DNA from: Styela clava
Lineage: Eukaryota
Reading direction: 5' to 3'
DNA: 64,000 bases
NCBI RefSeq assembly: GCF_964204865.1
Contig: NC_135263.1
Location: 12,214,001-12,278,000 of the forward strand
A program made the position numbers and the translations under genes. Shown here piece after piece: positions 30,330-54,599 of this stretch; within the stretch, counting starts at the first letter, position 1, and each line of letters begins with the position of its first letter. The notes under the pieces are model-generated. The model saw only the letters and a list, made by a program, of their open reading frames with translations, made no database searches and was not told the DNA's origin.

Positions 30330-33300
30330 TCATGAGCTGTCATCTTCGCTAGATGACTCTTCTTCTGCCTCTTGTAGCCAATCAATAAATTTGGTAACCT
30401 GAAAAAATTGAATTCAAAAAGTATTGCTGTTACCTAGGACTTCCACTATTACAATTCCTAACGATAAAGTGCCAATGTTTTTTCAAACACCGGGACTCAA
30501 GTTGAATGATGAGAGCTTGATAACCTGGTGAGTTTAAGGAGCGAAATATAACAATATCAGAATACTTACTGATTTTCGTAATTGGTTGGGAGTTACGTCA
30601 GAAACTTCTGAAGTTTGCACTGTAGAAGGATTTTTATGCCATGATAAAATTACTTCTTCTGCTAAGATGTCATTCTCATATAATAACATCAAAATCTAGA
30701 ATAGGAACACAGTAATACTTATAAACATAGTAATATTTCTAAATCACAGCTGAAGACTTTAATTTTAGCCTTCATAATATTTAATATAAATTAGTCATCG
30801 AATATCCAACTTAGGAATTTTTTTTATCTTATTAGCATTAGTCAGAAATAATAAAGTTAAATTTACCACATCTACCAGTCTGTGTCGGGCACACAGGATC
30901 AGTTAGCTAGTTATTATTTATTTCAGATGCATGAACTTGATGGTGAAGGAAGTTGTAACCGATTAGTGATTACGTGAACACCCTGCAGCGGTGTGGAGTC
31001 CAGCAATCCTCTCGGCTCTCATACATAATTATCACCCACAGGATTCAAACCCACACAGGGTAATCAGACGTGCGATCGCAAGTGTATTCCTAACGTTTAG
31101 CACGGTGCATCAACAATTTTATGATTAGTAGTAACGATATGTAAAAAATGAACAAAGCTTAAGAATATACCTTGATAAGACAATCATAAGCATGTTTGTT
31201 GCATAAGCAATATTGTTCAATTTCATTAATACATTCCATCTGTGACTGACTTGTTTTATTATAATTCATGAAAACTGGAGACATATATAACAGAACCTGA
31301 AAAGAGGAATTATTTAGTCAAATCAAGTGTTTTGATGGTGTTACTGCTTGAAATTTTCACCCAATTCCCTAGCACGGCTTGCATCCTTGCCTAGATGTTG
31401 TTCATGTCCAAAAAATAGTACATGTAAGAAAAGTTTAGCACATCATAATTCTATTTGCGATAATTTTACTGTATTGCATGCTGAAAAAATTAGTACCTTT
31501 TTCAAAGCTGGAAAGAATGGTGCACCATTGCATCTCAAATAAGAAATCTCAAATGTGGCTTTAGTAACATTTCGAATAACGTCCTGTATCGTGACATTGT
31601 AAGCATATTTTGATGAGTTAATTTCCAAAATTAAATTATCGCACTTGATACTTTCTTCTATTCCTCGTGATAAACTGTCTTTGACTTCTTTGAAAAATAC
31701 TAAAAAGATAGAGCATACAAGAATCAACGTTCATGATAGAAACATGGAAAAGCAAGCGAGGTGAACCACTAGCTTAGGTTTATGTTACCAAAACAAAACC
31801 TATATTAAAAGTGGCTGATGCAAAAATTTATGTATACAGCTAATATGTTTGTACTTTAAGAGAATTTGGTCAAAGAAGCTCATGCATTCAAAATCAAAGG
31901 AGACTCATCTTTGAGCAAAGTTACGAGAGACCATTGAAATGCTATCGAAACTATATAGATTGAAATTTGATAGGTGCATTGATTTTTAAATACATTGATA
32001 AATTTTTGAGAAACAATTGACATTGGTAATACATTCAATGAACAAAACCGCCATAATGGATTGATGCCATCTTATACACTTCTTGTAAGCCCAAACTCAC
32101 GGATTCATCATTAAATATCCTTGTCTAGCCCCCTGACACACCTACGCCTATCACTAATATAAAAAAAAATTTAGTTAAACTGACCCCTGTATGATTCTAT
32201 TACCTGCTGGAATGAAAACTTACATGTTATTGAATTTTCTTCATTCTCATAATCCTCCATGTCACTTCCATCTGTTGAAATATCATCATCTTCTGATGAT
32301 TCCGCGTCACTATATGTTGGGAACATTTTATCTCTCTCAGTGAGAGACATTCCTAAATAAGAAAGAATATTGATTCCAATCTGTGATAATGGTAATCATT
32401 AACCCTTTCCGTGTGGAACGACAAAAGTCGCTAGATTGCAGCGGGTACGTTGATGTACTCCACTGTTTTATTTAGCAATCGGTCGCAAACTGCTGGTCTA
32501 GTTTTTCCGGGTTTTAGTTTATTGATAAGAAGTCTTCTTCGAGATTAACATAAGCGACGGTAAATCTCGCTTTCGTTTACGACGGGAATTTTATTTGCGG
32601 CAGAACGAGGGAGTGTTTTTGAAATTTATGCAATGTTTTTTGGGTGGTAATAGAAGACATATTATCCCTTCTATCTACCAAAGTATTTTGAGTTAGATCA
32701 CGAAATTGCTACAGCAATATTATGCTATTGTTTGCCAACCACCAAGCGGTAACAGTAAAGGATTTAGCGAATATTTCTATTTTTTATCACGGTTTGGAGT
32801 TTCAACTCCCAAGAAAATGAAATGCCTTTTTTCTATCCGGTTGGTGACTCAGACCCCCACTTTCAGAAAAACTTTTTTTTTAATCGCCAATTGCAAGCCC
32901 TTTAAATAAGCTTTCCAACGAGCCGTCAGTGGGCAGCAGAGGATCATTAGTTTTTCGTTAGTCGATCGATAAGTTGTGGGGGTACAAATGCATAAAATCG
33001 GCGTAGCAAATACGATTATTTAATAAAAAATAAAAATCGCATGGAAAGGGTTAAACAGTTTATTAATCTTTCAACAGTATGGCTTATCGTGTTCAAGCAT
33101 TAGTAAACCATGTATGAGCTCAAAGGTTGTGGGGTATAAATGTGTGTGAGAAGATTGCTGACTCCTTGCCACCATAGGGTAGTTCACTTAACCAGCTACC
33201 TCCACCATCAAGTCCATGCATCTAAAAATGAATAACTGGCTAACCAATCCCATACCCATAGATTACCCAGTTTTTACATTACTGCTTCCTTATAATGATC

Positions 33301-36300
33301 AAGGCTCGGTTTAATGAATAATTAGGAAATAAAAATTTAACAATGTGAACTGGTAATGCACATGAAACATCCTAAATTGGAATATACTTTCAATTATTAT
33401 GCAATTCGAATACGCATATATTCCTATGACCGACTATTATTGTTTTTTAGGTTTAACCAAAACCTATAAAAAAAAATAGTTAAATCACCCCAGATTCCTT
33501 CACGATTCAATTCCATTCCAACATCTTCATCTTCCATATCACTATCTATATCCTCAACTCTACTCCATAATATTCCTCGACCTCTTTCACCAACCAAAGA
33601 TGGATTAATATCCTTCAAAAAACAAGAGAGTAATCTTCAAAAATATGGGAATAAAGGGTATATGATTAAAATGTCCACTGCAATGACAGCAAATATCCAG
33701 CCTGATCTTAAAATAATTGTATCAAATGTCATATGTAGGTGTGTCTGCGAATTATAAAATCCAGCAAAAGTTGAGGTAACATATTGGGCCCAGTATGACC
33801 AGAAATTTGAGTAAAAGTCAATACGATCCAGAAAACAGTTATGAAATAATAGTTTCTTGGAAAACTTTTTGCATAACTTTTTTTCTAGATAAATCTCAAA
33901 TTCTACCTTCTTTTGCATATTTTCTCCTTCTGCAAAAGTTTCATCATCAATTTCAATATGAATCACAGTGTCTTCCTTCAACGTTATATTCGGACCAATT
34001 TCAACCTACAAATGAATTAAATAATAAAGTGAGGCAGATCAAAAATTAAAACCAAGTCTTAAGCTATATCAAAGAAAAAGGTAAACCTATCTTTTGCAGA
34101 TAAAACCTATCTTTTTCATATATGGCTTCTATGGGGCCAAACCAACTGGTGATTATGAACAAATGTTTATTCTATTCTAGTTCTAATGTGTTTACTACAA
34201 GAAAATTGATTCATAAAACCCACTTTTGATCAGTAAAAATTACGAAAAATAATTTACCTTTGTTGCTAATACACATCCAGAAGGTATTTTAGTATTTTCA
34301 TGAATGATTGAATTATTTGACAGAATGCTTTTGTCTATTGTACATTTGTCTTTCACCGTAACACCAGACCAAAGATAGGAATCTGTAAGGGATAGTAAAG
34401 AAAAATAGCCATATGAAGCATGAAAAAGAGGCAGAAGAATCGAAACTGAATTTAAATTGTTATTCCTCATGGTTCTCGCAATGGCTGTTGCTACAGGAAA
34501 CCTCTTTATTAACTATCAGACAAACCATAGCCAACGGTCGCATGCCATTTGACCCACCATTTGAAGCATTTTATGCGACTGCATGCTATTGGAGAAATTT
34601 TTTTAAAGATGGAATGAGAAAAAGTAACAATAATATTGTCTTCCAGCAAATTTTAAATCATAAATGCTAACAACAACAAGTACATCATACCTTTAATAGA
34701 AACATCATCACCAATAACACAACCATTTCCAATCACAGAGTTTCTTATTCGGCAGTTATTTCCTATAATAGTATCATGTCCGATCACACAATTATCCTCA
34801 ATTGAGCTATCTTTCCCCAAAGATTTGATGCTTCCAATATATACATTTCGTCGCAGATGGTGATACAGTTTTGGAGAGGAGGCCAAAGTGATATCTACAA
34901 AATAAAATGATTGGGGCATTTGTCAGCTCCATGGGGATGGAAAACTTAAATTACAGGGTAAAAAATGGCAATGAGTTGTATGCTAAAGTATGTATTCAAA
35001 GAGTTTTCTAGATACCAATTTTTAATTTGAATGAATTTTTAAGAAAATTTTCCCTAAAGATTAGCAATGCAAATTGCCAGTCTTTAAGTATAGCACTGTT
35101 AAACTGAGTTGCCCAATTAATAGTCATTCCTGGAGGAAATCCTGAATTTATGATGACACAATTTCACACAATCATAATCAAATAATTTACTACTGCAAAT
35201 CCCTATCTAAAATTCATCTCAATTTTCAATATTCTAATTAATATATTTATTGCATTTATTTATTTCTATTTATCTATTTTACATCTAATTTATTGCGAAA
35301 TTGGCAAACTTAAGAAAAATTTTTCTTAAGTCCCTGCATCTGAAACAAATAACTGACTAACTAATCCCCTACCGGACATGGACTGGTAACCAGACAAGAG
35401 ACCGTGGTTCGCCTTTGAATATCAGCTTATCTTATCAGCTTTCTTCTCCCCCCCCGGGATTAATATATAAATCCTATTAATATAACTAATCATCTGAAAT
35501 CTAAATTCCATTGAGCTATATTTCCGTTGACGTCTCTGCAAACACGGTTCCATTTTATTCAATTTCCACTGAAAATATACCTTTCTTGTTTTTTCCAGAA
35601 ACTGAATTTTCTCCAGATTCGAAATCGTTATCAGGAACATAAGGGTAAATCCATCTTGAAGTAACTGCCTTGCTTATCGTATCATACATGTGAAGGGTAG
35701 ATATTCTCGCTGCAAAATCTCTTTTAATTGTGTGAATGTGGATTTGATTTCCTAAAAACTGAAAATTTAGTAAGACATTATATACAGGGTGCGATAAAAA
35801 ACCTTCCAGATTTCAAGTCAGGTCATTGCTATGCTGCAGTTATCCACCTAGTTTTAACCCTTTCCGTGCGGTAGGCACGTATACGTACCAACGACAAAAC
35901 TCGCTAGATTGCGGCGGGTACGTTGATGTACTCCACTGTTTTATTTAGCAATCGGTCGCAAACTGTTGGTCTACTTTTTCCGGGTTTTAGTTTATTGATA
36001 AGAAGTCTTCTTCGAGATTAACATAAGCGACGGTAAATCTCACTTTCGTTTACGACGAGAATTTTATTTGCGGCGGAACGAGGGAGTGTTTTTGAAATTT
36101 ATGCAAATTTCGGTGTTTTTTGGTTGGTAATAGAAGACATATTATCCCTTCCATCTACCAAAGTATTTTGAGTTATATCACGAAATTGCTACAGCAATAT
36201 TATGCTATTGTTTGCCAACCACGAAGCGGTAACAGTAAAGGATTAGGCGAATATTTCTATTTTTTATCACGGTTTGAAGTTTCAACTCCCAAGAAAAAAA

Positions 36301-39300
36301 AATACCTTTTTTCTATCCGGTTTGTGACTCAGACCACCACTTTTAAAAAAACTTTTTTTAATTGCCAATTGCAAGCTCTTCAAATAAGCTTACCAACGAG
36401 CCGTCAGTGGGCAGCAGAGGATCATTAGTTTTTCGTCAGTCGATCGATTAGTTGTGGGGGTACAAATGCATAAAATCGGCGTAGCAAATACGATTATTTA
36501 ATAAAAAATAAAAATCGAATGGAAAGGGTTAAGTACTGTAAATTTTAGTTGTTAAATTATTGCCATTTTGTCTCCAATTTTCTAATGATTACAGATTAGA
36601 CATTTTTGGTAGTGATGTGATTATACCGCAATGATATTTGAGCTACTAAAAATGCTGAAAACTAAATCTAGACTGAAATGAATGAACAGTTGGAACAATG
36701 AAGAAGAAAAAAATTTGATGCATACCTCTTCATTTATCAAAATTCCTTTAATGAAATCTTCTTTAGTTTGGTAATCAAAATTATCTGTAAATAATTGAGG
36801 AACTTGGGGGGAACAGACAGCAACACCTTCATCTGATAAATCATACCGAAATTCAAAATTGGAACAAGTATTCTGCAGTAGGGTTTTCTGTAAAGTGTAA
36901 ATATAATATTTCAAATTTTATAAACTTCCAGCAATCACAATTCACAAAGCATTTCGATCAATTCGCTCGCCCTTTGTAAAGATCTTGATTCTTGAGCATT
37001 GCTATATTATTATTATTCTTGTCATTTAGATCTAATGTATCTTATTTTGTATATTTATATCGAATTTATTTTTTTATATCGTATAAACAAATTGGACATT
37101 TAAATCAACCATCAGTTTTCCACCATAACAGAATTAAATAGAAATACGAAACAGAATTGGAAGCTTTTCAAAATATTTTTAACTGTGTTCACTCACAGTA
37201 AGGCAAATTGGTAACCAGAACAAAAGATTGGATGTGCTTTAATAACGAGGATATTTGATAATAATAATAATGGAGATTCAACAAATGGCACAAGAATAAA
37301 ACTGTGTCTATTCATTAAAATTATTCGGAATGCTAAACGTATGTGGCCTTACCAATGGGAACTCAAATTTAGGTTTCCTTGTTAAACCGATTTTTTGATA
37401 ATAAAGAACTTGTTGAGTATGAGAATCGAGAGCAACAACGATGTCATCATCTGCTGATCTCATCTCATGAGTGGGAGGACAACTACGCAAAATTAGTGTC
37501 ATCAACGGCTTATTTTTATCTTTCGTCCTTCTATCCCTGAAAGCAAAATATAAACAGTGAAAAGGGTTATATTTGCCTGTTGAAAGATAGGATTTTCATA
37601 TTTATTCTAGAGAAGAAAGGCGATAAGATATATATATATATATATGGCGAACCACAGCCTTTCATCCGGTTCCCAGTGCATGCTGTGTATTTTGTGCTAT
37701 TTTTTTTTATAGATGACTTTATGGTGGAGAAATTTGTAACAGGTTTCGGTTACTTGAACCTCCCTATGAAAGCAAGGAGACCAGAATTCCTCTTGCACAT
37801 TTATTGAATTAAATACAAGTTACTCATTATTAGGAAGACTGAGAAGACACTGCTGTTATTATCTCAATTGCCAAACAATAATGAGGCAATATTAATATTA
37901 ATTTGTACACACTATTCTAAGCTAAGTCAATTATACAGCAGTATTGAACAAATGAAGTTTATTCAAAAATATGTGTTTAATCTTTCATCATTTCATCAGC
38001 TTTTAAACAATTGTCTGTGACTACGTACACAATTAGCATAGCCTACTTTATTGACGAGATATTTCGCAAATACCAACCGATGTTCTGTTAAAGCTTGCTG
38101 AAGAGACATATTCGATATCAGATCTCCTGCTACAAGAAGAAAATCTGTTTCAAACAACGATTTTTGATCGATGTCTCTCAATACATCACCCAATGATGTA
38201 AAATCTGATGACACAATAGGAGTGACTCGGCATTGAGAGGATCTGGAATAAAATTTGTCAATGATTAGTAATTTCGAACAAAAATTCCACAATTTTGCTC
38301 TAAACAAGGCGTTAGAGAACCATCCACTAATGTGCAGGAAGCTACTAACTTGAAAATTAAATTTATTGGAAAAAGGTATTCTAAAGACATATTTGTCATA
38401 CTTGGTAGATAATTTCTTAACTATGTCAAAGATTTTTGATAAGCCATATTTGGATATAAATATATAAATGCAATCTAATGGTAAAAAATAAATATATTGA
38501 ATTATTTGAAAAAGGTATTGTTTATTTCATTACCGGTATATAGTTTATTTAAAATATGCAAGCTTCTTATAATTCAAAAGAAACGCCATGCTTCAGCTCA
38601 ATTGTAAGACAACATATGTTTGAATAAAAAATAGATCAAACAATAAACAAAGAATAAAATACAAATATGCACCGCTGGTGTTTAGGAAAATTTCAAGAAA
38701 AAATTCCTCCCTCTGGAAGTTTCAGATGGAAAATTTTCTTCGTGAAATATGTAGACAAAATTAAAATCTTATCTAAAGCTCCAGTGTGCGATCTTTTTTC
38801 AATAGATTCTTTGTATTGTGTTATATTTTTTAGACTTGTTCAAAATTTTCTGGGTTAAAGTTTTGTGGATGGAACTCTCCTAGTAGTAATGCTCATATAT
38901 TTTATTCCATATTTTTTCATTTGATCTATTGTACGAATTTGGTGAAACTGTAATGAATTGGCATATTCAATAAATAATATTGATAAGCTATCATGTGATT
39001 TGAATACTGATACTGCAATGGCATTGTATAATAATAGACATTTGATCATCACACATAATGGAGATGAATTCTTTGCTTTTCTTACTTGGCTCCCCATTTG
39101 CTGTTTGCAATATAATCCTTTATCAGACCAGAGCAATGACAGCAGTAAACATAGATCTGTTGAACTCCATTTGATGACAGAAAATCTAGCGTGTAATCCA
39201 ACAATGGTTTGTTTGCTAAGGGGAACAATGCCTAAAATAGAAAAGGATAATTTAGGGGCCTAAATGTTTAAACACTTGTGAGAAATGATTATGCTCATCC

Positions 39301-39783
39301 TGATAATCGTTTACACAAATTTCGCTATAATGAATCTACAAAATCTCAGAATATTTGAACACCTGATGACCCATTCCATTTTTTGAGTCAAGCCTCAAAT
39401 CAGTGAGAAAAACCTCTCGTGTCACGTCTACATCGAGTACCTCATATTCTAATTTTTCATTAGTAAATACCATTATTCAAAACGAACGCAAAATTGTGAC
39501 TCGTAAAAACATTTTTAATTGAACTCGAGATGTGTTGTCTTCATAAGTTATATTATATCTGTATATGTAATTGTTGGCTATACATATTTCAGTTTTTATA
39601 AGTGGTAAATTTGCAGTTTCAATTAAGTAATCATACTGGCGACCACTCACTACTCACCAAAGGAATGTCATCAGAAAGAGGTTGAAATTTTTCATCGAAT
39701 CTGTCTGCTACAACAACAGCTTGTAAAACATTCTCTTGTTCAAAAGTTCCACCTTGAGGCTTGCCTTTCTTTGTTGAAGGCAT
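30330..39783 (-). CDS. EIF2B5: Translation initiation factor eIF2B subunit epsilon
   Basis: 15 GT-AG exons: 39783-39658, 39231-39086, 38242-38078, 37536-37353, 36887-36726, 35758-35581, 34894-34691, 34382-34258, 34005-33907, 33612-33489, 32352-32224, 31699-31497, 31296-31171, 30695-30570, 30398-30330. Motifs: LQAVVVADRF, SLGDVLRDID, LFTDNFDYQT (NF motif), left-handed beta-helix (CVIG..TIIG.NCRI.NSVIG), LILEINSSKYAYN, W2 domain ending FIDWLQEAEEESS. Confidence 0.95.
30865..31110 (-). mobile_element. Degenerate tRNA-derived SINE copy in an EIF2B5 intron
   Basis: Shares ggagtccagcaatcctctc, ggattcaaacc and gtattcctaacg with the full SINE; boundaries approximate. Confidence 0.7.
32403..33050. 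mobile_element. piggyBac-type non-autonomous element (MITE), copy 1
   Basis: TTAA|CCCTTTCC...GGAAAGGG|TTAA; near-identical to 35858-36528; no transposase ORF. Confidence 0.85.
33075..33270 (+). mobile_element. Degenerate SINE copy
   Basis: gtgtgagaagattgctgactcc...cctccaccatcaagtccatgc...aatcccataccc matches the SINE body; boundaries approximate. Confidence 0.6.
35328..35478 (+). mobile_element. 3' fragment of SINE
   Basis: tggtaacc...gaccgtggttcgcc...tcttatcagcttt...ccccgggat...taaatcctat matches the SINE 3' end. Confidence 0.6.
35858..36528. mobile_element. piggyBac-type non-autonomous element (MITE), copy 2
   Basis: TTAA|CCCTTTCCGTGCG...GAATGGAAAGGG|TTAA; same orientation as copy 1. Confidence 0.85.
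37582..37800 (-). mobile_element. Degenerate SINE copy with internal (TA)n expansion
   Basis: gataggattt...ggcgataaga...atatggcgaaccacagcct...ccggtt matches the SINE 3' region; boundaries approximate. Confidence 0.6.
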
Positions 39784-40486
39784 CGCTTAGTCGTATATAA
39801 GTACTACAGCCAGGTTTTATACAACAATCTACGATAATGGCCAGTCATCAGAACACCACGAGAACTGACCGAGGAAGGACTGGCCTGACGCAACAGCAAT
39901 CGCAGAATCGAATGAGCAAGAGCAAAAAGTAACCACGCCACTAGGCACTAATACCGCCTGACGCACAAAATTACTAGCATTTCTCAGTAACACTCAATCC
40001 AGAGCCATTATATAATGGCTCTGCTCAATCAATCAATTGTCGATTTGAAATGTGTGTGAAAGCATGTTATAGCCGAGAAAATACAACTAAACATTTTAAT
40101 TCAGTATATCTAACTCGGGAATGGAAAAAGACTCGTAGTTAAATATACTGGTAAATTTTACAACAGCATGATTGAAAGCTAATAGAAATATAGTGGGCTT
40201 AGTTGTGATTATGACGAGTCGGTGGACAGTGAGTACCTAATCAGCATATTATCACAAAAAAATGTATATTGTACAAATGAAATCAGAATGAAAGAGTACA
40301 TAAAAGGCCTAGTTATGGAAACTGTTTCCAAATAACTATACCTAATATTTTATATTAATAGCCACTGAATAAATTGTAATAGTATTCTCGCAGTCGGTGC
40401 ATACGGGGTTTCACTGACTAACGCGTAGACACAGAGAAAGTACAGTATCAGCAATTAGGAACAGTTGCTTGACAATATTATAAATC
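39784..40486. promoter_or_regulatory. Divergent intergenic region, candidate bidirectional promoter (EIF2B5 / tail-anchored gene)
   Basis: About 700 bp between opposed start codons; direct repeat GCCTGACGCA at 39883-39892 and 39956-39965; perfect 24-bp palindrome with a central TTATATAA at 40000-40023. Confidence 0.45.
40000..40023. repeat. Perfect 24-bp palindrome CAGAGCCATTATATAATGGCTCTG flanked by a 7-bp direct repeat (CTCAATC)
   Basis: Read directly from the sequence: ctcaatc|cagagccattatataatggctctg|ctcaatc. Confidence 0.85.
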
Positions 40487-43400
40487 ATGTGTGATGTCAT
40501 AATGCACAATAGACAAACTTATTCCCAAGAAACGCAAATAATTACTAGGTTAACAGAAATGATGGAAGAGAGAAACGTCGAAGAAAATCCGCGGGAGTTC
40601 GGAGACGTTATTTCAAAAATAAAGGTTGGTCATGCATTTCACCAACATAAGATATTTAATGCTACGGAGAATGATCATCTCGATAGAAATCTAAGCAAGT
40701 TATAAGCTGAGTTATGCAATTATTTAATTTTCAAATATTTTTGAGTTTTTCACCTAGGCCATAATCTACCCTTTTCAGAAAGTTCACGGAATTCTTGATC
40801 GCGTGGGGTTGAATTTGACGAATATCAAAAGCAAAGTACGTCACCATCAAAGAAGTCAATCTTGTGGAGTCGGTAAACTTGAAAATCACACGGATAAAGA
40901 GAAAGACAGGTAAGGAGGCGAATAAATCAAAATCATCATCCAGTCAGGCTTTATGAAATAGCGACTGCTGACGAAAACGTACTAACGCAAACTTTGAAAG
41001 TATCAGGCTGTAAACATAACACTATCTGTTTAAGTAATTAGAGCAAATGAACCTGAATTGTTAGCAGGAACTATGAGTAGAAAATTTTGTATATATACAA
41101 GGGTCTATGGCGGAAGAAATGACAGCACTTTCTCTTTGTACATCAAAAATACATATATTACTCGACACTGTAATATAAAAAAATTGCAATGGTTATTTAA
41201 CCTTTAACTGTCGAAAACAAAATTTAAATTGTGAAATCAAAAGTATGATCAAAATTTCTCTCCTCATTATTTAATTGAAGTTTTATGTAAGTGTTGATCC
41301 AAATTTACCATATCGTTGTTTTAAATCTTATTGTTGATAATATATTGGTAACTAATTATTTCTTTTTAGGCACACGCCTTCATCAAGGTATGTCAGTCAC
41401 ATACCTGTGCCGTATGGGAGACTTCGTCTCAGAAACAAAGTCGCGACGTTATCTATGGCTGATCGAGATCAGGTTTGTGAATCGGAACACATTGCACCAA
41501 ATTTAATAAGCACATCCAAACTTGGGGGAACATTAAATTTGTAGCTTGCCAATAACAGAGAAAAACAAAATTTTCATCGTTATTTCGACAACAACTCATG
41601 TTGTCGAACTGGTTTCAATGTTACGACCAGCTGGAATTCATAAATTTAATTATAAATTCTGTATGCTATCGAAATTAGAAATCCGTTACTAGTTTACCTT
41701 GCACAATTTTTACTAACTATGGCGTAAAAATATCAGGATGGTAAGGAGAATATGCTCCGATTTTAGGGATCCTAGAGAATATGAAATGGATATAACATGC
41801 TTAGCCAAGCCAGAGGAATTGCTGAGAAATATTTAACGTTCATGCATATCGAGAAAACGTTTATAAAACAAGAGCCGTGTTATAGTAGTTTGGCACTTCT
41901 TACTACGGTTAGAACTAAAGTATTGAACCTGTTCATGGTTAACTGAAATGCCAAGAAGTTTTCTGGCAACTAAATGTTATGAAATAAAAGTCCTAAAATT
42001 CGGATGAATCAAAACTTTTGGGACATCAATACTCAATCCGGATGTTTGAATGACTCGCCGGGTACATTGCTGTGCAACAGGATTCATTAGAATCATGAAC
42101 ATCTGTCAATAATGTGAGCTAAAATCCGATATATTAGACACTATCCACAAATATTTCTTTTAGAATCACGGAGGGGCATCCGGAGAAGGTGACGTTACAG
42201 TCGAAAAACATCTCAGAAATGATAGAAGAAGGGAGTCCCCATCACCGAATAGAGGAAAACAATCTGATGCGGGTATCAACTCTGAACCGGATTTACCAAC
42301 ACCCAGAACAGAAGAGCGCAGGTTGGCAATAGTAATATGTATATATCTATACACGGTGAATAATATGTTAAAACAGAGCATCACCCGATTAATTAAAGCA
42401 ATATATATAAATCAAAACGTGTCGTATATAGTTTTAATACTTGGGTTCTATAGAACTTGGTCAATTTACTATTTCACAGAAGGCGATGTGGCTCGTTACC
42501 GGTTCCAGTAGCTCGAGCAAGAAGTGTACATAACCAACGCTACCTCAGCCAAGCAGCGGAAAACAAATTATCTTCAACAAGTTCAAATAAACGGCCAACG
42601 TATCGCAAACGTGATCGAAGATACAGCAGGGTGGTTGCCAGAAAAGTTTTGAATGAAGAAAGCGATTCTTCATGCACTACATCGGACATATTGCATGACA
42701 CATTTACTACTGATGCACGCTGTTCTGAGAATAGCATAAATAAACAAGATACCAATTCTGATGACTCAAGTACCCCAACAAATTCTCCGCGGTATTCAGT
42801 GTTGCAAAAACAAACTGATGCGGATTTAAAAGTTGACGTAGCTTTGCATACTCGTTCTCGAAGCATTCCAACAAAAATAGACGGAAGAATTGAAAGACGT
42901 CTAGAAAATTATTTGAATAAAGGTCTAAAATCTGAAGTAAACATGCAACAGACTCACAGCCAACGACCGATACTAGTTGCCCGAAGAAGTCGAATACCAA
43001 GAAAAAGTCATTCAACGTTGCGAAAAGATGTACATGGAAAAGATTCAAAAACAGACGACAATCCAAAGACATCATCTCCAGCGCCTAAACTCAAACAGTC
43101 GCTCATTGATCACAAGAGAACTTTACCACACAACAAAATCAAACGAGAAAATGTCCCAAAACCCATTCGAGGTGGGAGGCGGCGTGTCCGAGATTTGCTT
43201 GAGGACCAGTGCTCTAGCGCTGAAATTGATAACAACACTACACCACACAATGACCCGCGGCCACCGGAAGATTCGTTGGTTGACACGCACGATGATGGAG
43301 AATCCCAAACTGTAGTAAACTTTTCGGACATCGACACTGGTTCGATGGTTGACACGCAATATGATGGAGTATCGGAAGCTGCAGTTAATTCTTCCGACAT

Positions 43401-45473
43401 CGCACCCATTCGAGGTGAAACGCGGCTTGCCCTAGATTCGCTTGAGGACCAGTGCTCTAGCGCTGAAATTGATAACAACACTACACCACACAATGACCCG
43501 CGGCCACCAGAAGATTCGTTGGTTGACACGCACGATGATGGAGAATCGCAAACTGTAGTAAACTCTTCGGAAATCGACACAGGTTTTGGGAGTGAAATTT
43601 CTAGAGTTGACGAAGGATATGAGGTAACTACAGGAAGAAGCGACGACAGTAGCGCAAGTGCAACTTGGAGGTGGATAAACCGAGATGCTGCCGATGAAAT
43701 TTACGAATCAGATCCAGGCAGTTCATACAGAGAAAGAATAGTATCTCCACGGGGGAGCAGCAGCACCGCGAAAGAGATTGAGAACCATGACACCAATCAG
43801 TACGATAACAACGACATACAATGTATTTCTTCTCCGTCTCTAGTGCATTCCGAAAGTGACCTTCCTGAAACGCTTTTTGGTGCAGATGACATAAAAACTG
43901 GCCGCAGCGTATCGGAAATCACGCAATTAATTGAAAATTCAGCAATCGAAAACCAAAATATGATGACTAGTCCCAAACAAGACATATTGTCTGCTGAGTT
44001 ATCTTTCGACACAGATTATTCTCTGGTAAAGGACCGACTTCATAGATATTCAAATGAATTTAAGAATACTGAAATACCAAAGCTCGAATCCCCAGACCAC
44101 GTACCAGTTACAAAGGGAAGAATACGTGAACAAGTTGATCTGTTCGAAAAACGAATAGAAGATGGCAATGATCCATTTTGTAGTCAAGTACCAAGTCTGT
44201 ATCATGATATTGTCAAACTTGTTGACGGATATATTCTTGACGCCTGCGCCAGTTTAGAAAAAGAATCAGAGACGAAAGGTAAATGCATTATCATAAAAGG
44301 ATTCGATAGCAAATATTTCAGATTAGATTTTTTGGCAGAAGTGGTTGGTTTACTACAAACGGTAAGAGAATATTCATAACTTTGGCAAGACAAGATTCGA
44401 AGCCAATTGTTCTAGCTGAACTTCAATTATGTACTCATCTTCTTTTGGATCATAAGTAATTTTGTCGAATATTTGAACATGTTTATTTAAAATATAATTC
44501 GGAAAGAGATTAATCACCTTTTGAATTTCTTTAGGTACAACTATGCCGGTGGTACCACGCTTGGATCTACAATCTCTGAATCGAGAGGAAGACGAAAAAT
44601 TTGAAAAAATGCGTGGTATTGGCAGGAAAAAAGAATTGAGCGAACAAAGTACACCGTATAAAAGTTGCCTACACTCATCAATGCATACGAATTGCATACA
44701 GAAGTTTGTCTCCTCTACGAGATCGAGAATTGGTCAATTGAAGCAATCGAAGTTGTTACATATTATATGTTCGTCTTGCAAGTGTACAAAGAGGTAAACT
44801 ACGAATTCATGCATTATTTTTCCTATTTGAGCTAATGAATTATGTTGACGACGCCCTGATTTGCCATTGGGCAAAGTGGGCTGGGCTGAATGATAAGAGC
44901 CTCAAATTTTACAGAGACCTCAATATTTAATTTTGAAATAATATTCGTTTTCAAGATGTTTTTTTAAATTTTGAGGGCTTGTTCAGAAACTCAACCGTAT
45001 AAAAATTTCATAAAACTGATAATGAAAAAAAAACGAGAGATTGTGTGACTTTCTTATTTCTCATATATATACGATTTGTTTTTACTGGCTGGAAATAATA
45101 AACTGTGCTCGATGGACTCTTTACTATTCTTTACATATGAAAAAATTAAATCATGCCCTGGTAATTTGAATGTCGATTAAATCTGTTCTGTGTGTGGTGG
45201 CTGTTTGATTGGCATTTTCGTATAAGACTCTATACCATATCATCAAATACTTACAGGTTATGGGAGCACAGCTTTGGGCGGAGAACTAGATGCACAATTA
45301 TTGGAGTGTTATACGAAATATTTTATGGCGTGACAACGTTGTCTGTAATGTTATTGATCCTGTTCATGGGAATTTCAATCCCAGAAAGAGATGATCTTCT
45401 TCGATCTAGCGAATTTATTCTTAATGACATCATAACATTTACACGTGCTGGTCCACCGAACTGTGTCGTATGA
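40487..45473 (+). CDS. Uncharacterised, about 934-aa low-complexity protein with a C-terminal transmembrane helix and KASH-like tail
   Basis: Exons 40487-40624, 40779-40909, 41370-41472, 42164-42321, 42480-44278, 44535-44793, 45257-45473 (TGA); phases consistent, total 2805 nt. Rich in S/T/D/R; hydrophobic segment IIGVLYEIFYGVTTLSVMLLILFMGISI followed by a 30-aa tail. Start exon is less certain. Confidence 0.75.
43162..43583 (+). repeat. In-frame coding tandem duplication, period 243 nt (81 aa), with a 69-nt (23-aa) sub-repeat
   Basis: cccattcgaggtg at 43162 and 43405; LEDQCSSAEIDNNTTPHNDPRPPEDSLVDTHDDGESQTVVN occurs twice; SLVDTHDDGESQTVVN / SMVDTQYDGVSEAAVN sub-units. Confidence 0.9.
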
Positions 45474-45914
45474 TATTTATGTTGTGTTATTTTTATGTTG
45501 TTTCTACGTGACTATTATATGCATACTGACTACGTCTTCTAGCGACAAGTGCTGAATTTGGGTTTTTCTTGGGTGCATTTTGTGTGTATAATAAATACCG
45601 GTAATCATAACCTTATAAAAAAATATAATCCGTAACTGGATATTTCTAGGTTCGTAGTGCTCACTTATACAGTTGTTTATTTAACAACCTGCCCATTAAC
45701 TTGATTTGTCTGTCTAAGTCTAAGCGTAAATATATACTGGTTTAAGCTATGATGAAATAGGAGTAGTTTGCGGGAAACGCTGTTAGGAGAGCGGACAAAA
45801 CCGCAGCTTAGCTTTGAGGAGGCGTACAGATTTAAGATTTAAAGGTGCTGTCGAAGAAGTGGTTATGAAATAATTCACACACGTACGCACTAAAACTGCT
45901 AAAATAAAATTAAA

Positions 45915-47650
45915 TTCAGATTCAGATTCAGATATTTATTTTTCGTCGTGCAAAAACATTGTACATTTAAACAAATGGTAAAAATTAAATAAATACATTG
46001 AAAGAAAGAGGTACAATATTTGGACTGCAATAGACGAGGGATCGCGAAAAGACTATCAAAAGTCATCATGTCAGCGACACCATTATAGAAGCAGATTAAG
46101 TCAAACAATACAGAAATAAATCAGCAAAAATAAATGAAACATTTTGGGAACTAAAATGTACGTGAGAACAGAAGATTCGATTTAATAGAAAAAAGCATTG
46201 ACGAATTTAAACAACTCAACGCCATGCTCCACCGAGCACGCCAACAACAAAGAAATTGCTGACGTGCGTGACGCAGCATAATGTTGTTGACTACTTGGGG
46301 AATTCCCTGCAGCAGCAGCAGTGGAACTACTAATATAACCAATGAATTATGATTAAGAAAAAGACATATTCAATTTATTTTGGGTTGCAAAGAGCACATA
46401 TATATTGGAAAATATTAAACGACATATGTGAACTACAATGGATGAAAGCATATTAAAGAAGCAATGACTATTAGAGGTAACTAAAGTTTTTGAATTTTGT
46501 CTTTGTTATAAGAGTTCATAATACAGTTATTTTGTGAAGTGACTTTCATAAGGAGCACATGCTATTAAATAATAAAATAGCAGTAATGGAAATCAATAAG
46601 GTGAAAGGATACCTAGCTTATTATAGAATCTTGAGCAAATAAAGGTAAGAAACACAAGTGCTTTGTGAGAGAAAGTCATGCTCTGTGAGCAGCACATACT
46701 ATTGGAGTATACCACAGTATTGAAGAGCAAATAAAATAATAATAATACAAGGATAGTGATAGCATATCATGAGAATAATGACAAGATGAAGGTAACACCC
46801 ATAATTTGAAAAAAGTGAGTTTCAAACAGTCTGAGATACATTTCAACTCTGCCAGCCTACTGACAGATATAAGAATTTAAGTAAAGAAATTTTAGTGCTT
46901 TTTTGAATGAATTATAAGTCTTAGAGCGAAGTGTGTCTTGGAGCGTATTCCAGAGTTTCACACCGATGAATTTAATAGAGCTTTGTGAACGATTGGTAGA
47001 AAAGCGAGGCACATGGTATGAGCTATTGGCAGCGGAACGAGTTGAATGAGAGTGAACACTCATCTGTTTGACAAAATAGTATTTAAAAGCCATAGGCAGT
47101 TTATTGTTTAGGTGTTGGTGCATGAGTTTCAGTATCTCGATTTTATAAATGTCTGACATTTTGATTATTTGATTCTTATGGTAAAGAGGATCTAATCTTG
47201 ACATTGGTCCAGCATGGGTCAAAGCACGGATAGCCCTGTTCTGTAATACTTCAATCCGGTGTAACAAAGTTTTATTAGCTGATCCCCAAGCTATAATACC
47301 ATATTGCAAATGAGATTGAAACAGAGCGAAGTATATCATGCGTAACGTAGACAAAGAAGTATAACGCCTAAGCCGATAAAGCATTCCTACCGCCTTGGCT
47401 AATTTAACAGCAGTGTTGGTTATTTGAATGTCCCATTGCAGTTTGTTATCAATGTGGATGCCAAGATATTTGAATGAGCTAACGTTGTCAAGAATAGTTC
47501 CTTCAATCTCAATTTTCACAGATGTCTGTGATTTGGATTTACTTGGAGCAAACAACATAGTTTTTGATTTATTTACATTTAATGTTAATTTGTTTTGTTT
47601 CATCCAATTTGCTACTTTTCTTATTTCAGTGTTCACTCTGGACTGAAGCA
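45915..47650 (-). mobile_element. 5'-truncated non-LTR retrotransposon (L2/CR1 group): C-terminal RT region, 3' UTR and (ATCTGA)n tail
   Basis: ORF 47657-46857 (WMKQNKLTLNVNKSK, FKYLGIHID, YGIIAWG, KLWNTL); AATAAA followed by TATCTGAATCTGAATCTGAA at the 3' end, the same tail as the LINE at 57456. Confidence 0.9.
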
Positions 47651-48341
47651 ACAACAAGAGATTAAAAATCTTTCAATTTTGTTCCAAATCAAAGGCACAC
47701 TTGTAAAGTCAAAAATATTATCTTTAGTATGCCTTTTAGATTAACAAGTCGGATATTGTCTCATATCATCACAGGGGAATCACCTACCACAAAAAGACGA
47801 ACATTTGGTCCGGCGAGCGTCTTTAATGAGTCATTGTGAATGATAATTGATAACCCTAGAGTCAGCGGGGTGTAGTTAAATAATTGGTAATATATTCCAT
47901 ATATATTCCAACATTACAAAAATAGATTTAAATATTATTGTGTTTTTACTTTCAATTACTAGATATAAGATATGAATTCAGAGAAATTCTGTTATATTTG
48001 AAGGTAGTACCCCCAGGCCCCAATCACCACATAGTTATCAAACAAGTAACAGCAGCAATCATTTATAGACTCAACATTAGAAAAGGAAAAAAATCACCTA
48101 ATCTCGTGAGAGAATTTGAAATACTAAAGAATTGTCTTTGAATTGTGAATCAAGTAGAGAGAGAGAGAGAGTTTATTTGTTTTGTCCACCAGAAAACATA
48201 CACAACAAAAAAAATATGAATTTAGTTTTAATATGTATAAAAATGTCTAATATATTTAAAAAAAAAAAAAATTGGTATTTTATTTTATCATAGAAAAAGA
48301 GAATCAACTACAAATAAATCCTTACCACGAAGTTTTGTTGT

Positions 48342-48661: not shown

Positions 48662-49190
48662 GCCATACATACAGTTCATACATACATGAAATATACAGTT
48701 CTGTAGTTATATAACGGTCGACCACGGTCTGACGGTGCTTCAAGTTCAATCGTTTTGTTTCATGGCGAAGTTAAAGTCAATGATTTTATGTAATTTCTTT
48801 CCAATACAGCAATATGATTTACTAAGGGACAGGTCAAAATTAGAATCTACAACTACTATTTACTTTAATCTTGTTTGAAATAATAAAAAAAAAACGATTA
48901 TATTATTAATAAATTAAATATTGAGGTTGAAATTCAATTTTGACACAAGAGAGTTTGTTTCGTTTAGCAAAAAAGACAGTCAACCATACTGAAAAACTTA
49001 TAAGAGCTATAGCAATATGGGTGACTGGGTAAAGCTGTTTTTACCACTAAAACTCTTATAGCTGTATAGAGTTTTTTTCATCATCATTGAATAAAAGCAC
49101 CGTGTATGCAGTAATCTTACAGTCATAATAAGAATGTGCATTGTACTCCTAAACTTGTAATTTTTTCATCGCAGAGTATTTGGTTGTAAC

Positions 49191-49682
49191 ATGTTGCGAT
49201 ACAGAGCATATCGTGCTTTAAGGCAATGGTGTGCACCACAAAGATGCTTGGCAACTAAAAATTCTGTTTCAAAACTTTTAAAGTTAGGTAAACTCAATCA
49301 TGTCGCAATAGCTGTGCCGAACTTAGAGAGAGCCACAGCACTTTATGAGGATGTGTTAGGAGCGGATGTAAGCAAAAAACAGGATCTACCCGAGCACGGA
49401 GTTACCACTGTCTTCGTTAATTTACCAAACACGAAGCTGGAACTTTTATATCCACTTGGTGAAAACAGCCCCATAGCGGGATTTTTGTCGAAAAACAAAA
49501 GTGGTGGCCTTCATCATATCTGCATAGAAGTGGAAGATATACATGTAGCTGTGGAAGCATTGAGAGAAAATGGAATTAGAACTCTTACCCAAGAACCTAA
49601 AATAGGTGCTCATAACAAACCAGTAATATTTTGTCATCCAAAAGATTGTGATGGAATTCTACTTGAACTGGAGCAAGAATAG
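49191..49682 (+). CDS. MCEE: Methylmalonyl-CoA epimerase, mitochondrial (intronless CDS)
   Basis: VOC-fold motifs LNHVAIAV, EHGV, KLELL, GGLHHICIEV, PKIGAH.KPV.F.HPKDC.G.L.ELEQ; Arg-rich N-terminal transit-peptide-like leader. Confidence 0.95.
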   Translation: MLRYRAYRALRQWCAPQRCLATKNSVSKLLKLGKLNHVAIAVPNLERATALYEDVLGADVSKKQDLPEHGVTTVFVNLPNTKLELLYPLGENSPIAGFLSKNKSGGLHHICIEVEDIHVAVEALRENGIRTLTQEPKIGAHNKPVIFCHPKDCDGILLELEQE

Positions 49683-50281
49683 AATAAGCGGAAAATTATA
49701 TCCACAAAAATACATTATTCCACATTGTTCAACTAACCTGCATCTCAAAATTTACATATGAAAGAAAAAATGGAAAGACAAAACAATAACTCAAAATACA
49801 TACAGGAGATGATTAATACATAAGATTACCTCAAAATATATATGGATGTAAATTCTCTCCAAGCAAAGAGTTAAAGATACCCGTACTGAAAGCCCATAAC
49901 AAATAGAGACTTGACCTATATATATACTCTTTTGATTATTACTTTCAAATTCAGCAATTGCAGTTCATTAGTGATGGCTAGTTCACAAGGGCAGAAATTT
50001 GCAAACAAAAACTCATTTGTCTGGAATTACATCATACATATTGCGTCAGATAATAAATTGTATCGTACTAACTATTATCAATTTATTTATCTGTTTTCAT
50101 TTTTTCCATTATTCATAAATGAGCTAAATCTTTTAAAATATGATACGAAACGTGTTTTGATAGTGTAATAGCAACAAATGTGACATAGTAGCCATGCGTG
50201 TGCACTTATACATAACTGTTTCTATATTGCTTCAATTTCAGATCAACTCCTTGGATTTTTTTAATAGCGTGTTTTAAGATC

Positions 50282-51627
50282 ATGGTCGAGAGAATATCTA
50301 TTCCAGATTTGTTGAATGAGGATAGAATAATAAAAATATGTGCACCTATGGTTCGATATTCTCGTCGAGCATTTAGAATGCTTGTGAGAAAATATGGATG
50401 TGATTTGGCATACACACCGATGATCATATCAAACTCTTTTGCACAATCGAAACAATGCAGAGATAATGAATTTCAACCGCATGAACTCGATCGACCCTTG
50501 GTGGTGCAGTTTGCTGCGAGCAATGCAAAAGACTTTGCGGATGCAACTGAAATCGTCTTTCCAGATGTGGACGGAGTTGGTTTGAACTGTGGCTGCCCAC
50601 AACGCTGGGCAATGGCTGAAGGATATGGGGCCAAATTGATTAAAAACCCCGAATTAGTACGAGATATCATTAAAACAACAAGAAATAGAATCCCAAGTAA
50701 TGACTTTTCAATATCAGTCAAGATACGGATTCTTGAAACTGAAGAAGGAACAGTGGACATGTGCAGGCAATTTGAAAGCGCTGGTGCGTCATATATAGCA
50801 GTTCATGGCAGAACAACAAAAGAAAGAAATCAACCTCCTCATTATGACATCATAAAGTCAATTAAAGATTCTGTTGATATTCCAGTCGTTGCAAACGGCG
50901 GTATCAAAACTCCACATGATATTGAAAGAATACATGAAATCACAGGTCTCCGAAGCCTTCCCTTTCTAAATAATATGGCAGTAGATTTATTTTCATTTGG
51001 AACACAAAGGAATGTCCAAAAAACTTGGTTTGGCACATTCCTCATTTTAGTATTAAAACCATAAATGTTACTCATCAAAATTAGCAATTACTACCGAAAT
51101 ATAAAGACAGGGAAATCCACCCATTGTGATATAATTCTTGCCTTAAATTTCTAGAATTAACATAGGTGATCAGACATGCTTTCATTCCCAAATAGCTCAC
51201 ATGGTGTTTGGCGCAGGATCTTGGTATTTTACTATTTTGGCATGGTTTACTGAAATGAGGGAACCTGTTGTTTGTAAATATGTTAGTAAAAGTTAATAAG
51301 ACAATTTAAATTTTGATACTTGCATGCCAGATTCACCTCCTAATAATTTTGTTACGTTATATATCTTTAGGTGTGAATGGAGTGATGGTCGCCCAAGGTT
51401 TATTGAACAATCCAGCAATGTTTGGTGGATATGAAAAAACTCCTGTACAATGCATTGAAGATTGGCTATCTGTGACTGAACAGTTTGAAACCATATTTCA
51501 GCACTTTCATAATCACTTAATATATATGCAAAAATACACCACCCCTAAGTGGGAAAAGCAAGTTTTTAACAACCTCAAACATAAAAAGGACATACTGGAC
51601 TACCTATCTCTAAAATATGAATTATAA
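50282..51627 (+). CDS. DUS4L: tRNA-dihydrouridine(20a/20b) synthase-like, 2 exons, about 306 aa
   Basis: Exons 50282-50945 and 51371-51627 (ITG|VNGVMV). Motifs: KICAPMVRYS, YTPMI, DRPLVVQFAA, NCGCPQRWA, SVKIR, AVHGRT, IPVVANGGIKT, LLNNPAMF, FHNHL.YM. Confidence 0.92.
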
Positions 51628-52622: not shown

Positions 52623-53558
52623 TTATTTTTTTTCTTTCGTTTTCTTCGACTTGATCTTTCTTTTTCCACTGGATATCCTTAATTTTTTAGACTTGTTTCG
52701 TGATCCCAAACCAACCATATTCCACATTGCTTTTTTCTGTTCTCTTCTCCTTTTACAGTCACGCAGATACTCCAACTCACCCATGTCCATATCACGGATA
52801 TCTTCATGATTATCATTGTAATACACTGGAAGTCCGAGAGAATTATCAGTTTTAATATTCAACGAGCAAACATTATTCCAACCCCTCGGAGCGCTTTTCG
52901 CAACTTCAACTGCACACGCCATAATATTATCAACAATTTGTGACACTGAGAAAGTCATTTTCCCCGCTGTCATAATGCTGGATGATCCATTACCAGACAT
53001 AAACCATCTAGTGTTTCCAACGACATCGGAAATCTCCTTGCGAAGATCATCACATTCTATATCAACGGGCCACGGATGTTTTCGTTTTTCAAACAAATAT
53101 TTCCCTAGTAATTTTGGTAAACGATGAGATATAGATTTATCACAAAGAAATAGGTCGTACATATCCACCAATTTTCTTCTTGATTCATACTGTCTGTAAT
53201 CCAATCTCACTTGTCGAATGGGCATAAACTTTGTAATTGCAGATACTCCTTTTTCATTTAGAAGATTTTTATAATACTCTTCTGATTTTTCAGCATCATC
53301 CTCATCAAAATCAGGTGTGAAAAGACATATTTCAGAGTCTTTATATAATTCATGGGGCAACTTTATATATACAGACTTTTCTTTTACAGCAGGAATTTTG
53401 TGCAGCGTAACTTGGAGCTGTATGCAATTATGTTCTTCAAGTAAAGCTTTTTCATTTTCCTTTTTTTGTGCTTTAGCGATGTATTCTTTCAAGGCTTTCA
53501 CAGCCTTCGTTACTTGACCCTTATCCAGGGGACATGTAGTTTTCCAAGAATCATCCAT
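52623..53558 (-). CDS. RSL1D1: Ribosomal L1 domain-containing protein 1 (intronless CDS)
   Basis: QVTKAVKAL, IKLPH, EICLFTPD, YESRRKL...YDLFLCD, LPKLLGK...KRKHP.PV, IVDNI, GWNNV.SLNIKT..SL.LPVY, Lys-rich C-terminus. Acceptor at 53597 and a possible 5' UTR donor near 54083. Confidence 0.9.
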   Translation of the reverse strand: MDDSWKTTCPLDKGQVTKAVKALKEYIAKAQKKENEKALLEEHNCIQLQVTLHKIPAVKEKSVYIKLPHELYKDSEICLFTPDFDEDDAEKSEEYYKNLLNEKGVSAITKFMPIRQVRLDYRQYESRRKLVDMYDLFLCDKSISHRLPKLLGKYLFEKRKHPWPVDIECDDLRKEISDVVGNTRWFMSGNGSSSIMTAGKMTFSVSQIVDNIMACAVEVAKSAPRGWNNVCSLNIKTDNSLGLPVYYNDNHEDIRDMDMGELEYLRDCKRRREQKKAMWNMVGLGSRNKSKKLRISSGKRKIKSKKTKEKK

Positions 53559-54599
53559 TATGAGTTAAAAGTGTACTGTTTGGCAGTTTCATTTGACTGT
53601 AATAAAATTTAATTTTATTAAATATGGTAACAGCTAGCCTATCTGGTTTTCTAAATGTCCAACAATTTATCAATTCAAATTACGAATATGATATCTGGAT
53701 TCTCAGCGTATGGCGGTACTGATAGACAAACTCTCAAGCAGAGCAATAATTCTTTCAGTCTGTGGACCGCGCTTTCCCTAAAGCCTGAAAGTCCATCTTA
53801 AAAATTATTATGAGTTTGGAAGTCAATAAGAATTCAGATTAATTTTTATTAATCTCAGTAATATTACATTCACATGAAATTGTAACAGTCTATTGTGGGT
53901 ATTATTATTATAAGAGCCACATTCAACAAGAAACCTATGCGCAGATGCGGCTGTATGCTGGAATGAGTTGTACCAATGCCCTGTCTGACTAAATGAACAC
54001 AAGTATTAAACTTTTGAAATGTTCACGTGGTTTTTTCATTTCACCATCATGCTCACTTATATCCAGGTTTAAAATGCTCTTACCGGTAACCACTAACAGT
54101 CTAAACACAGAATCCAATGCCAATGCGGAGATCAGATGTTTGCACACAGTAGGCTACCGTGTACTGTTTGAGAGATTTGACTCGGGAATTCACGTGGGTC
54201 AGTAGAGCGACCGAGAGCGACATGCCAGATTCAGTTTTCCGGTTAATTAAGTAAGTAAGTGTTAAATGTTTTCCAAATTGCTTCTAAATTTTAGAATTGT
54301 TTATCATCATCCAAAAGCGCTTATTTTCGGGAAATATCTTATATTTTCATTTATTAAAAATAAAAATTTACAAAGTGGAGAATTACGAGATTTTCAAATA
54401 TACAAAAATAAAACCGATATCCATTTACTTATGAATACCCCGTTCTTATTCAAAACAACTGCAAAACATGGAACATCAATCATTTAAAATATGTAGGAGA
54501 GATTTCTTGCTATCGAATTTTAAAAATTCAGGCTAGGTCTTATTTTCGGGAAACCACGGTACACGCATGGGGTTAAAACCATACAAACATCAAGGACAG

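Follow-up and report, generated by a model that had tools for sequence, protein, structure and literature searches.

A predicted membrane protein of Styela clava with a KASH-like tail that runs past the SUN-docking end

We analyzed a window of 64,000 nucleotides from the ascidian Styela clava and found that LOC120340882, a gene annotated by NCBI as "uncharacterized," encodes a 910-aa protein whose predicted luminal tail resembles a KASH domain more closely than expected by chance, a likeness that our comparisons support, and continues beyond the residue at which a KASH peptide would end in the SUN pocket. Judging by its residues, the tail quite probably descends from a KASH. The explanation we prefer, which we hold at slightly less than an even chance, is that a KASH-derived tail was capped by three residues through loss of a stop codon and now ends a scaffold of the ER and outer nuclear membrane that probably does not dock SUN. 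An earlier note on this DNA had proposed a new LINC-complex component; our results do not support that label, as the protein lacks a free x-P-P-x terminus, the only SUN1/2-type protein found in the genome has a canonical pocket, and no orthologue was found in the collections searched.

Gene structure and genomic setting

The gene has seven exons, and joining them across six GT-AG introns gave exactly NCBI's 910-aa LOC120340882 protein, the sole protein to match a query made from exon 5 (Table 1). Each of the six introns was spliced out in at least one RNA-type run; "RNA-type" is a guess at library type, as no run is recorded as RNA, and is supported by the spliced joints themselves. The junction 44793/45257, which the earlier note had singled out for checking, was joined in 5/5 RNA-type runs (three studies) but in 0/2 DNA-type runs (X10, X12), and the intron concerned (44794-45256, GT..AG) was absent from contigs of X1, X2, X3, X4, and X6. 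The assembled contigs, from which rare forms drop out, showed no other joint at the 3' end. The protein length of about 934 aa given earlier stands insofar as the first in-frame ATG (40487) does yield 934 aa; the 910-aa form, from the NCBI start at 40559, is better supported because the X1 contig begins at ~40547, which is consistent with the 40559 ATG, a contig end being no proof of a transcript start. This contig end lies at an AG (40547-40549) just 5' of the ATG and carries two unmatched letters. Spliced-leader trans-splicing occurs in ascidians and could account for them.

Table 1. Features of LOC120340882, with positions in the window
Feature	Position	Strand	Remarks
Exon 1, coding part	40559..40624	+	X1 contig from ~40547, joined to 40779; upstream in-frame ATG at 40487
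Exon 2	40779..40909	+	short helix with heptad pattern (aa ~12-44), encoded jointly with exon 1
Exon 3	41370..41472	+	joints in X1, X2
Exon 4	42164..42321	+	joints in X1, X3
Exon 5	42480..44278	+	1.8 kb; body poor in hydrophobic residues and predicted disordered, first half basic, second half acidic
SRIP, SxIP-type EB1-binding motif	42988..42999	+	fits published context rule; weak, chance p ~0.17
Internal duplication	43159..43596	+	two ~60-aa copies, ~43159-43353 and ~43402-43596
Imperfect SFM-like motif 1, V..I...IE	43909..43935	+	without the essential Phe
Imperfect SFM-like motif 2, I..Q...FE	44122..44148	+	chance p ~0.08-0.12
Exon 6	44535..44793	+	juxtamembrane; basic, Cys-rich, polymorphic
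Exon 7, coding part	45257..45473	+	membrane anchor, tail, stop; junction 44793/45257 in X1, X2, X3, X4, X6
Hydrophobic segment, aa 853-880 (core 860-878)	45297..45380	+	predicted single TM helix; net charge +5 on its N-terminal and -3 on its C-terminal flank
KASH-like predicted luminal segment, aa 881-907	45381..45461	+	Phe900 at -7, Ile898 at -9; ends G-P-P-N
Overhang C-V-V and stop	45462..45473	+	Cys codon TGT (45462-45464) one base from TGA
3' UTR	45474..45597	+	AATAAA at 45590-45595; RNA-type contigs end at 45541-45597

On the minus strand, an eIF2B-epsilon-type gene (Pfam LbH_EIF2B; ~31400-40316) stands head to head with LOC120340882, and RNA-type contigs of the two genes reach 40316 and ~40547, respectively, ending ~230 bases apart, which suggests a common promoter. 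Directly 3' of LOC120340882 lies a high-copy repeat (45914-46200; depth of 1248-2350 in X10 vs. 64), and reverse-transcriptase (LINE-like) fragments occupy 46860-47672 and 61148-63136 on the minus strand. Compact genes with long single open frames follow downstream, for a glyoxalase family protein (49161-49679, plus), a dihydrouridine synthase (50216-51061, plus), and a ribosomal-L1-domain protein (52626-53564, minus), and are useful synteny markers. The window also contains two trefoil-domain exons (20447-20674 and 26365-26625, plus) and a glycosyltransferase-2 exon (711-989, plus).

Predicted membrane anchor and disordered body

The protein has a single hydrophobic segment, with a best 19-residue Kyte-Doolittle mean of 2.22 at aa 860-878 compared with a maximum of 0.71 elsewhere, and no hydrophobic stretch was found at its N terminus (best 0.8). 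The earlier description of a protein with one C-terminal hydrophobic helix and no signal peptide was thus borne out. Since this one segment is C-terminal, has charges of +5 and -3 on its flanks, and is without an N-terminal counterpart, the predicted topology is a cytoplasmic body followed by a 30-residue luminal tail. At 28 residues (853-880), with one Glu and two Tyr, the stretch would also suit a different arrangement, namely a hairpin or insertion in another membrane, with a cytosolic tail in which C-V-V could act as a PDZ-type or export signal. We consider this very improbable, given that the flanking charges and the one unbroken helix predicted by AlphaFold2 at aa 850-878 (low confidence) both fit a single pass.

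The long body had been called disordered, and our analysis agrees: it has few hydrophobic residues, passes from basic to acidic along its length, and is predicted disordered. No Pfam family was found on the protein (P0001, P0003) at E<=1, and AlphaFold2, run twice on single sequences (mean pLDDT 36 and 40), gave no confident domain and models too poor for a fold search. The only coiled-coil-like feature is a short heptad stretch at aa 12-44. Three short motifs in exon 5 are candidate cytoskeletal contacts, as hints only. The SRIP motif follows the context rule for EB1 binding reported in PMC3649978, and a second SxIP (aa 75) was rejected for failing the strict form of that rule. For F-actin, the SFM motif is reported as VxxLxxxFE (10.1101/2025.04.16.649135); the two imperfect matches have chance p values of 0.05-0.12 each, or 0.01 for a looser pattern chosen post hoc, and regexes fitted to both motifs gave tiny p values that we discarded as circular. 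Just before the membrane helix, the stretch encoded by 44732-44793 and 45257-45296 is basic and has several Cys in a span of 25 residues, and the corresponding part of the nesprin shares this character; these Cys are possible lipidation sites.

Likeness of the tail to KASH domains

The tail (45381-45470) reads PERDDLLRSSEFILNDIITFTRAGPPNCVV and is followed by the stop codon TGA (45471-45473). The 30 residues behind the helix and the terminus PPNCVV, with its Cys, had been reported before and were confirmed in two assemblies. As a KASH reference we used the end of Styela clava's own nesprin (L004), the only clear KASH in the genome. In a free local alignment, the two luminal tails matched without gaps (shuffle p 0.0024), while helix plus tail (58 residues) matched more weakly (shuffle p 0.015). 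When the last 16 nesprin residues were slid along the tail, a score of 28 was obtained at a three-residue overhang, compared with 1 or less in the other six registers, and this score was reached by 0/5,029 stop-ended genomic frames (best 22; shuffle p 1.2e-4), a null set taken from the window and fetched loci, mostly non-coding, with GPPPx-ending frames and the tail itself excluded; the test was designed after the match had been seen and uses a single reference sequence. Both methods agree on the same register, with Asn907 at position 0.

This register places Phe900 at -7, Ile898 at -9, Pro905 at -2, and Pro906 at -1, with Leu894 opposite the nesprin Phe at -13 and Phe892 opposite the Phe at -15. 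The KASH residues at -7 and -9 are reported to be buried, ANC-1 carrying Phe at -7 (PMC6527376), and the aromatic and aliphatic residues at these two positions are lost on counting from the real C terminus or in the register of the earlier note. Compared with nesprin KASH domains (PF10541; L004 and human KASH1-3), the tail likewise follows a membrane helix by ~30 residues and matches without gaps from -15 to -1 (F-15, L/F-13, I/L-9, T-8, F/Y-7, T-6, P-2, P-1); it differs in its three extra C-terminal residues, in Gly for Pro at -3, and in lacking a Pfam match as well as Pro at -11, a large hydrophobic residue at -17, and Cys at -23, where Asp896, Ser890, and Asp884 stand instead. These last three are described as features of long KASH1/2-type tails that are not universal (PMC6527376). 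The protein also lacks the spectrin repeats and actin-binding CH domains of nesprins (by Pfam; the folds gave no confident domain). G-P-P-N is itself a plausible KASH end because nesprin-4 (KASH4) is reported to end L-P-P-V, likewise without proline at -3, which makes x-P-P-x a functional end (PMC13200780); in nesprin-4, however, the motif is the true C terminus, whereas C-V-V follows it here, and no common cytoplasmic domain was detected.

A second register had been proposed by the earlier note from a tail of LRMP (JAW1/IRAG2; KASH6), a protein of the ER and outer nuclear membrane whose KASH is reported to be atypical (PMC10827754), and we compared it through the numbering of that paper only. 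Part of it holds, as E538 and L541 match E891 and L894; Arg902, however, faces H549, described as the equivalent of the conserved KASH tyrosine (PMC10827754). LRMP ends at the SUN pocket, whereas in this register, with Cys908 at position 0, LOC120340882 overshoots by two residues; the overhang of two belongs to this register only, the best-scoring one giving three. By its sequence, the tail overshoots the docking end in either case. The LRMP luminal peptide is reported to have an N-terminal helix, and a helix at aa 883-902 was predicted here with low confidence; the MRVI1 coiled-coil domain of LRMP/IRAG (PF05781) is absent from LOC120340882 (Pfam, E<=1), as are the EF-hand pair and long coiled coil of KASH5/CCDC155 (PF14658, PF14662).

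The architecture of a KASH protein is present, with one C-terminal hydrophobic segment (topology predicted) and a tail of 30 residues, within the range of about 8-32 reported for KASH luminal tails (PMC13200780). A free terminal PPPX or x-P-P-x, in contrast, is absent, as the protein ends G-P-P-N-C-V-V with Val as its penultimate residue. Since this free motif was tested for and not found, LOC120340882 does not belong among the members of the KASH family in a classification. Nor did the Pfam KASH profile (PF10541), suggested earlier as a check, match at E<=10, compared with 63 bits for the own nesprin, a weak test for non-canonical tails. A PDB search with the nesprin tail found KASH1, 2, and 3 but not KASH4, 5, and 6, which do have PDB entries, though perhaps without indexed peptide chains; because a true KASH misses these relatives, blank family searches weigh little.

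Could the resemblance be fortuitous? LOC120340882 would then be a lineage-specific, tail-anchored disordered protein with F-T-x-x-G-P-P near its stop by coincidence, unrelated to KASH or LINC. In keeping with this, no Pfam KASH, PDB, or Atlas match and no homologue was found, spectrin, EF-hand, and MRVI1 domains are missing, rare matches are expected to surface when many windows are scanned, and a hydrophobic stretch followed by GPPPx-stop occurs in non-coding DNA of this very genome (2/76 stop-ended matches). However, the nesprin score was unreached among the genomic frames and has a shuffle p of about 1e-4, the match lies at KASH distance (27 residues) behind the sole hydrophobic helix of a real protein, and the blank searches carry little weight for the reason just given. 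We therefore regard coincidence as unlikely, though still a serious contender.

The rest of the genome was searched for tails of this kind. A G-P-P-P-x-stop pattern had 100 matches, compared with 103 for the reversed control; 78 were retrieved, and 22 (12 ending in TGG and 10 repeat copies) were left out. Among the 76 stop-ended matches, only the nesprin is a KASH, for a pattern blind to tails that lack the Gly or that an intron separates from their helix. Two further loci (L055, L056) lie just behind splice donors, look non-coding, and were rejected, as was a 36-residue frame (L006; G000:C5:8775887-8775958, minus; Pfam KASH E 3.2) in which N-G-P-P-P is followed by 13 further residues and which has no in-frame membrane helix, likely a chance match. 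L030:1105-2888 and L077, each with an off-frame GPPPI-stop, are interrupted by stops and frame breaks and look like fragments of related retrotransposons. An LRMP-type gene (PF05781) had no candidates in the genome, in a search without a positive control. Weak matches to PF14662 belonged to coiled-coil genes of other kinds, near which no stop resembling a KASH end was found, and of eight matches to PF14658, the four frames read were by eye calmodulin-, centrin-, or light-chain-like; all were rejected. Thus, no KASH5/LRMP-type gene was found in Styela clava by these exon-by-exon searches of low sensitivity.

The earlier view of LOC120340882 as an orphan was upheld, every homologue search returning only the protein itself. 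Exon 5 found nothing else among the best 7,985 candidates scored, and aa 790-910 had no homologue among 40 candidates (protein lengths 500-1593). The last exon had none among 1.84 billion representatives, where one extra match (P0002) was rejected as a tandem-repeat translation. Metagenome contigs contained no homologue, two ESM Atlas searches and the PDB gave no match by sequence, and no paralogue was found in the Styela clava genome, two weak matches (L002, L003) being rejected as unrelated frames. The searched protein collection does contain close relatives of the Styela SUN, yet no LOC120340882 orthologue was found in it. Literature searches on KASH/LINC in ascidians and on Styela yielded nothing on LOC120340882 among the matches listed.

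Within the species, the older assembly carries a 931-aa allele, 97% identical, with a 26-aa insertion and a 5-aa deletion in exon 5. The tail ends GPPNCVV in both assemblies and in every run tabulated in full, and no luminal-tail change was listed in X1, X4, X6, or X12 (full table) or in X2. Between the assemblies, 1/72 last-exon residues changed vs. 28/838 elsewhere; that one change, T899A in the older assembly, lies within the tail, and the allele data give no evidence of constraint on it. X1 has ten differences in exon 6, whereas the single difference listed for its last coding exon is synonymous, a contrast that is suggestive at most of conservation. Exon 5 (42590-43341) tolerates in-frame length changes between samples; 15 bases near 42661-42681 are missing in X2 and X3, and X2 has a net loss of 63 bases in the first repeat copy.

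SUN docking and the origin of the overhang

Two genes with a SUN domain were found in the genome, of which one (P0004, 877 aa, SUN domain at about aa 676-870) is of the SUN1/2 type. In P0004, the residues corresponding to human SUN2 C563, C601, H628, S641, Y703, C705, and Y707 are all retained (7/7). The other (L010; G000:C2:13751632-13752006, minus), a single open frame of 1069 aa, is possibly SUCO/mid-SUN-like and is a candidate alternative luminal partner. According to reviews, one alanine added past the KASH end abolishes SUN binding in vitro (PMC6527376), and the same KASH+A extension causes UNC-83 to be lost from the nuclear envelope in vivo (PMC6527376, PMC13200780); the earlier statement that C-terminal extensions impair SUN binding thus agrees with this literature. 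The penultimate proline is reported to show high conservation, including in the divergent tails of plants and worms (PMC3265956). Because a single alanine suffices to abolish binding, the penultimate proline is Val here, and the Styela SUN pocket is intact, canonical docking of the LOC120340882 tail onto SUN is unlikely. Close parallels are the KASH+A mutants of UNC-83 and of a human peptide, in which an otherwise intact KASH also extends past position 0 (PMC6527376); these mutants were made in the laboratory, carry a single alanine, and are without function, whereas the overhang here is natural, three residues long, and present in every sample examined.

Under the reading we prefer, LOC120340882 would be a tail-anchored protein of the ER and outer nuclear membrane, and its luminal tail would derive from a KASH. 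A TGA-to-TGT change at the former stop codon likely created the C-V-V overhang, an economical origin because the Cys codon TGT is one base from TGA. With C-V-V past the docking end, the tail would probably neither be locked in the SUN pocket nor hold SUN under load, and the predicted disordered cytoplasmic body would serve as a membrane-tethered scaffold, possibly contacting the cytoskeleton, if weakly indicated, through the SxIP and the two imperfect F-actin motifs. In favor of the capped tail are splicing and a tail that are steady across runs and two assemblies, the positive-inside charge pattern around the sole C-terminal helix, and, as far as residues can tell, the score of 28 against the own nesprin, the suitable residues at the buried -7 and -9 positions, the fit of G-P-P-N to x-P-P-x, and an intact SUN pocket of the kind from which one added alanine releases a KASH. 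Against it, the searches found no outgroup, orthologue, or paralogue through which to trace descent or stop loss and no Pfam KASH match, the match is weaker over the full 58 residues, and the features at -11, -17, and -23 are missing. The residues at -7, -9, -13, and -15 look kept where a dead hook should decay, the gene being a rapidly changing one, which favors either recent loss or continued function.

Continued function would mean a working, non-canonical SUN ligand, with Phe900 and Ile898 in the KASH-lid groove, and hence a second LINC adaptor; the overhang might be tolerated, trimmed in the lumen, or turned to use, with Cys908 engaging the two cysteines that flank the SUN pocket. The two groove residues do look kept, and published KASH complexes leave some latitude: the loop between anchor and proline is reported to be flexible and to vary in length, and the cysteine pair of the SUN pocket to be reduced in the KASH3, 4, and 5 complexes (10.1101/2020.06.19.161265), while plant WIP1 deprived of its terminal motif reportedly loses binding only in part (PMC3265956). 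Moreover, one canonical KASH and no KASH5/LRMP-type gene were found in this genome by the low-sensitivity searches described above. The alanine extension, however, abolishes both binding in vitro and function in vivo (PMC6527376), the penultimate Val replaces a proline conserved even in divergent tails (PMC3265956), the unchanged Styela pocket must also accept the canonical nesprin end, and LOC120340882 has no long coiled coil or motor-adaptor domain of the KASH5 kind. We find such a ligand doubtful. Of the two options left by the earlier note, loss of SUN binding by a former KASH is the likelier. A bolder version, a natural exception to the rule against extensions, appears at least as doubtful: C-V-V would hide the x-P-P-x end of an ascidian LINC adaptor, which would be activated by luminal trimming or locked through Cys908 to the SUN pocket cysteines and would tie the nucleus to actin or microtubule ends by its short motifs, in place of the KASH5/LRMP-type protein that the genome searches did not reveal.

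In the papers cited here, engineered alanine additions are the basis for the rule that a KASH terminal motif tolerates no residue behind it, and the tail of LOC120340882 is a natural test case for this rule. If neither the wild-type tail nor one cut at Asn907 binds SUN, LOC120340882 would be an ordinary orphan membrane protein; if only the tail cut at Asn907 binds, a single base change would have disabled a LINC hook. Binding by the wild-type tail would broaden what counts structurally as a KASH and would mean that searches for a terminal PPPX miss LINC components.
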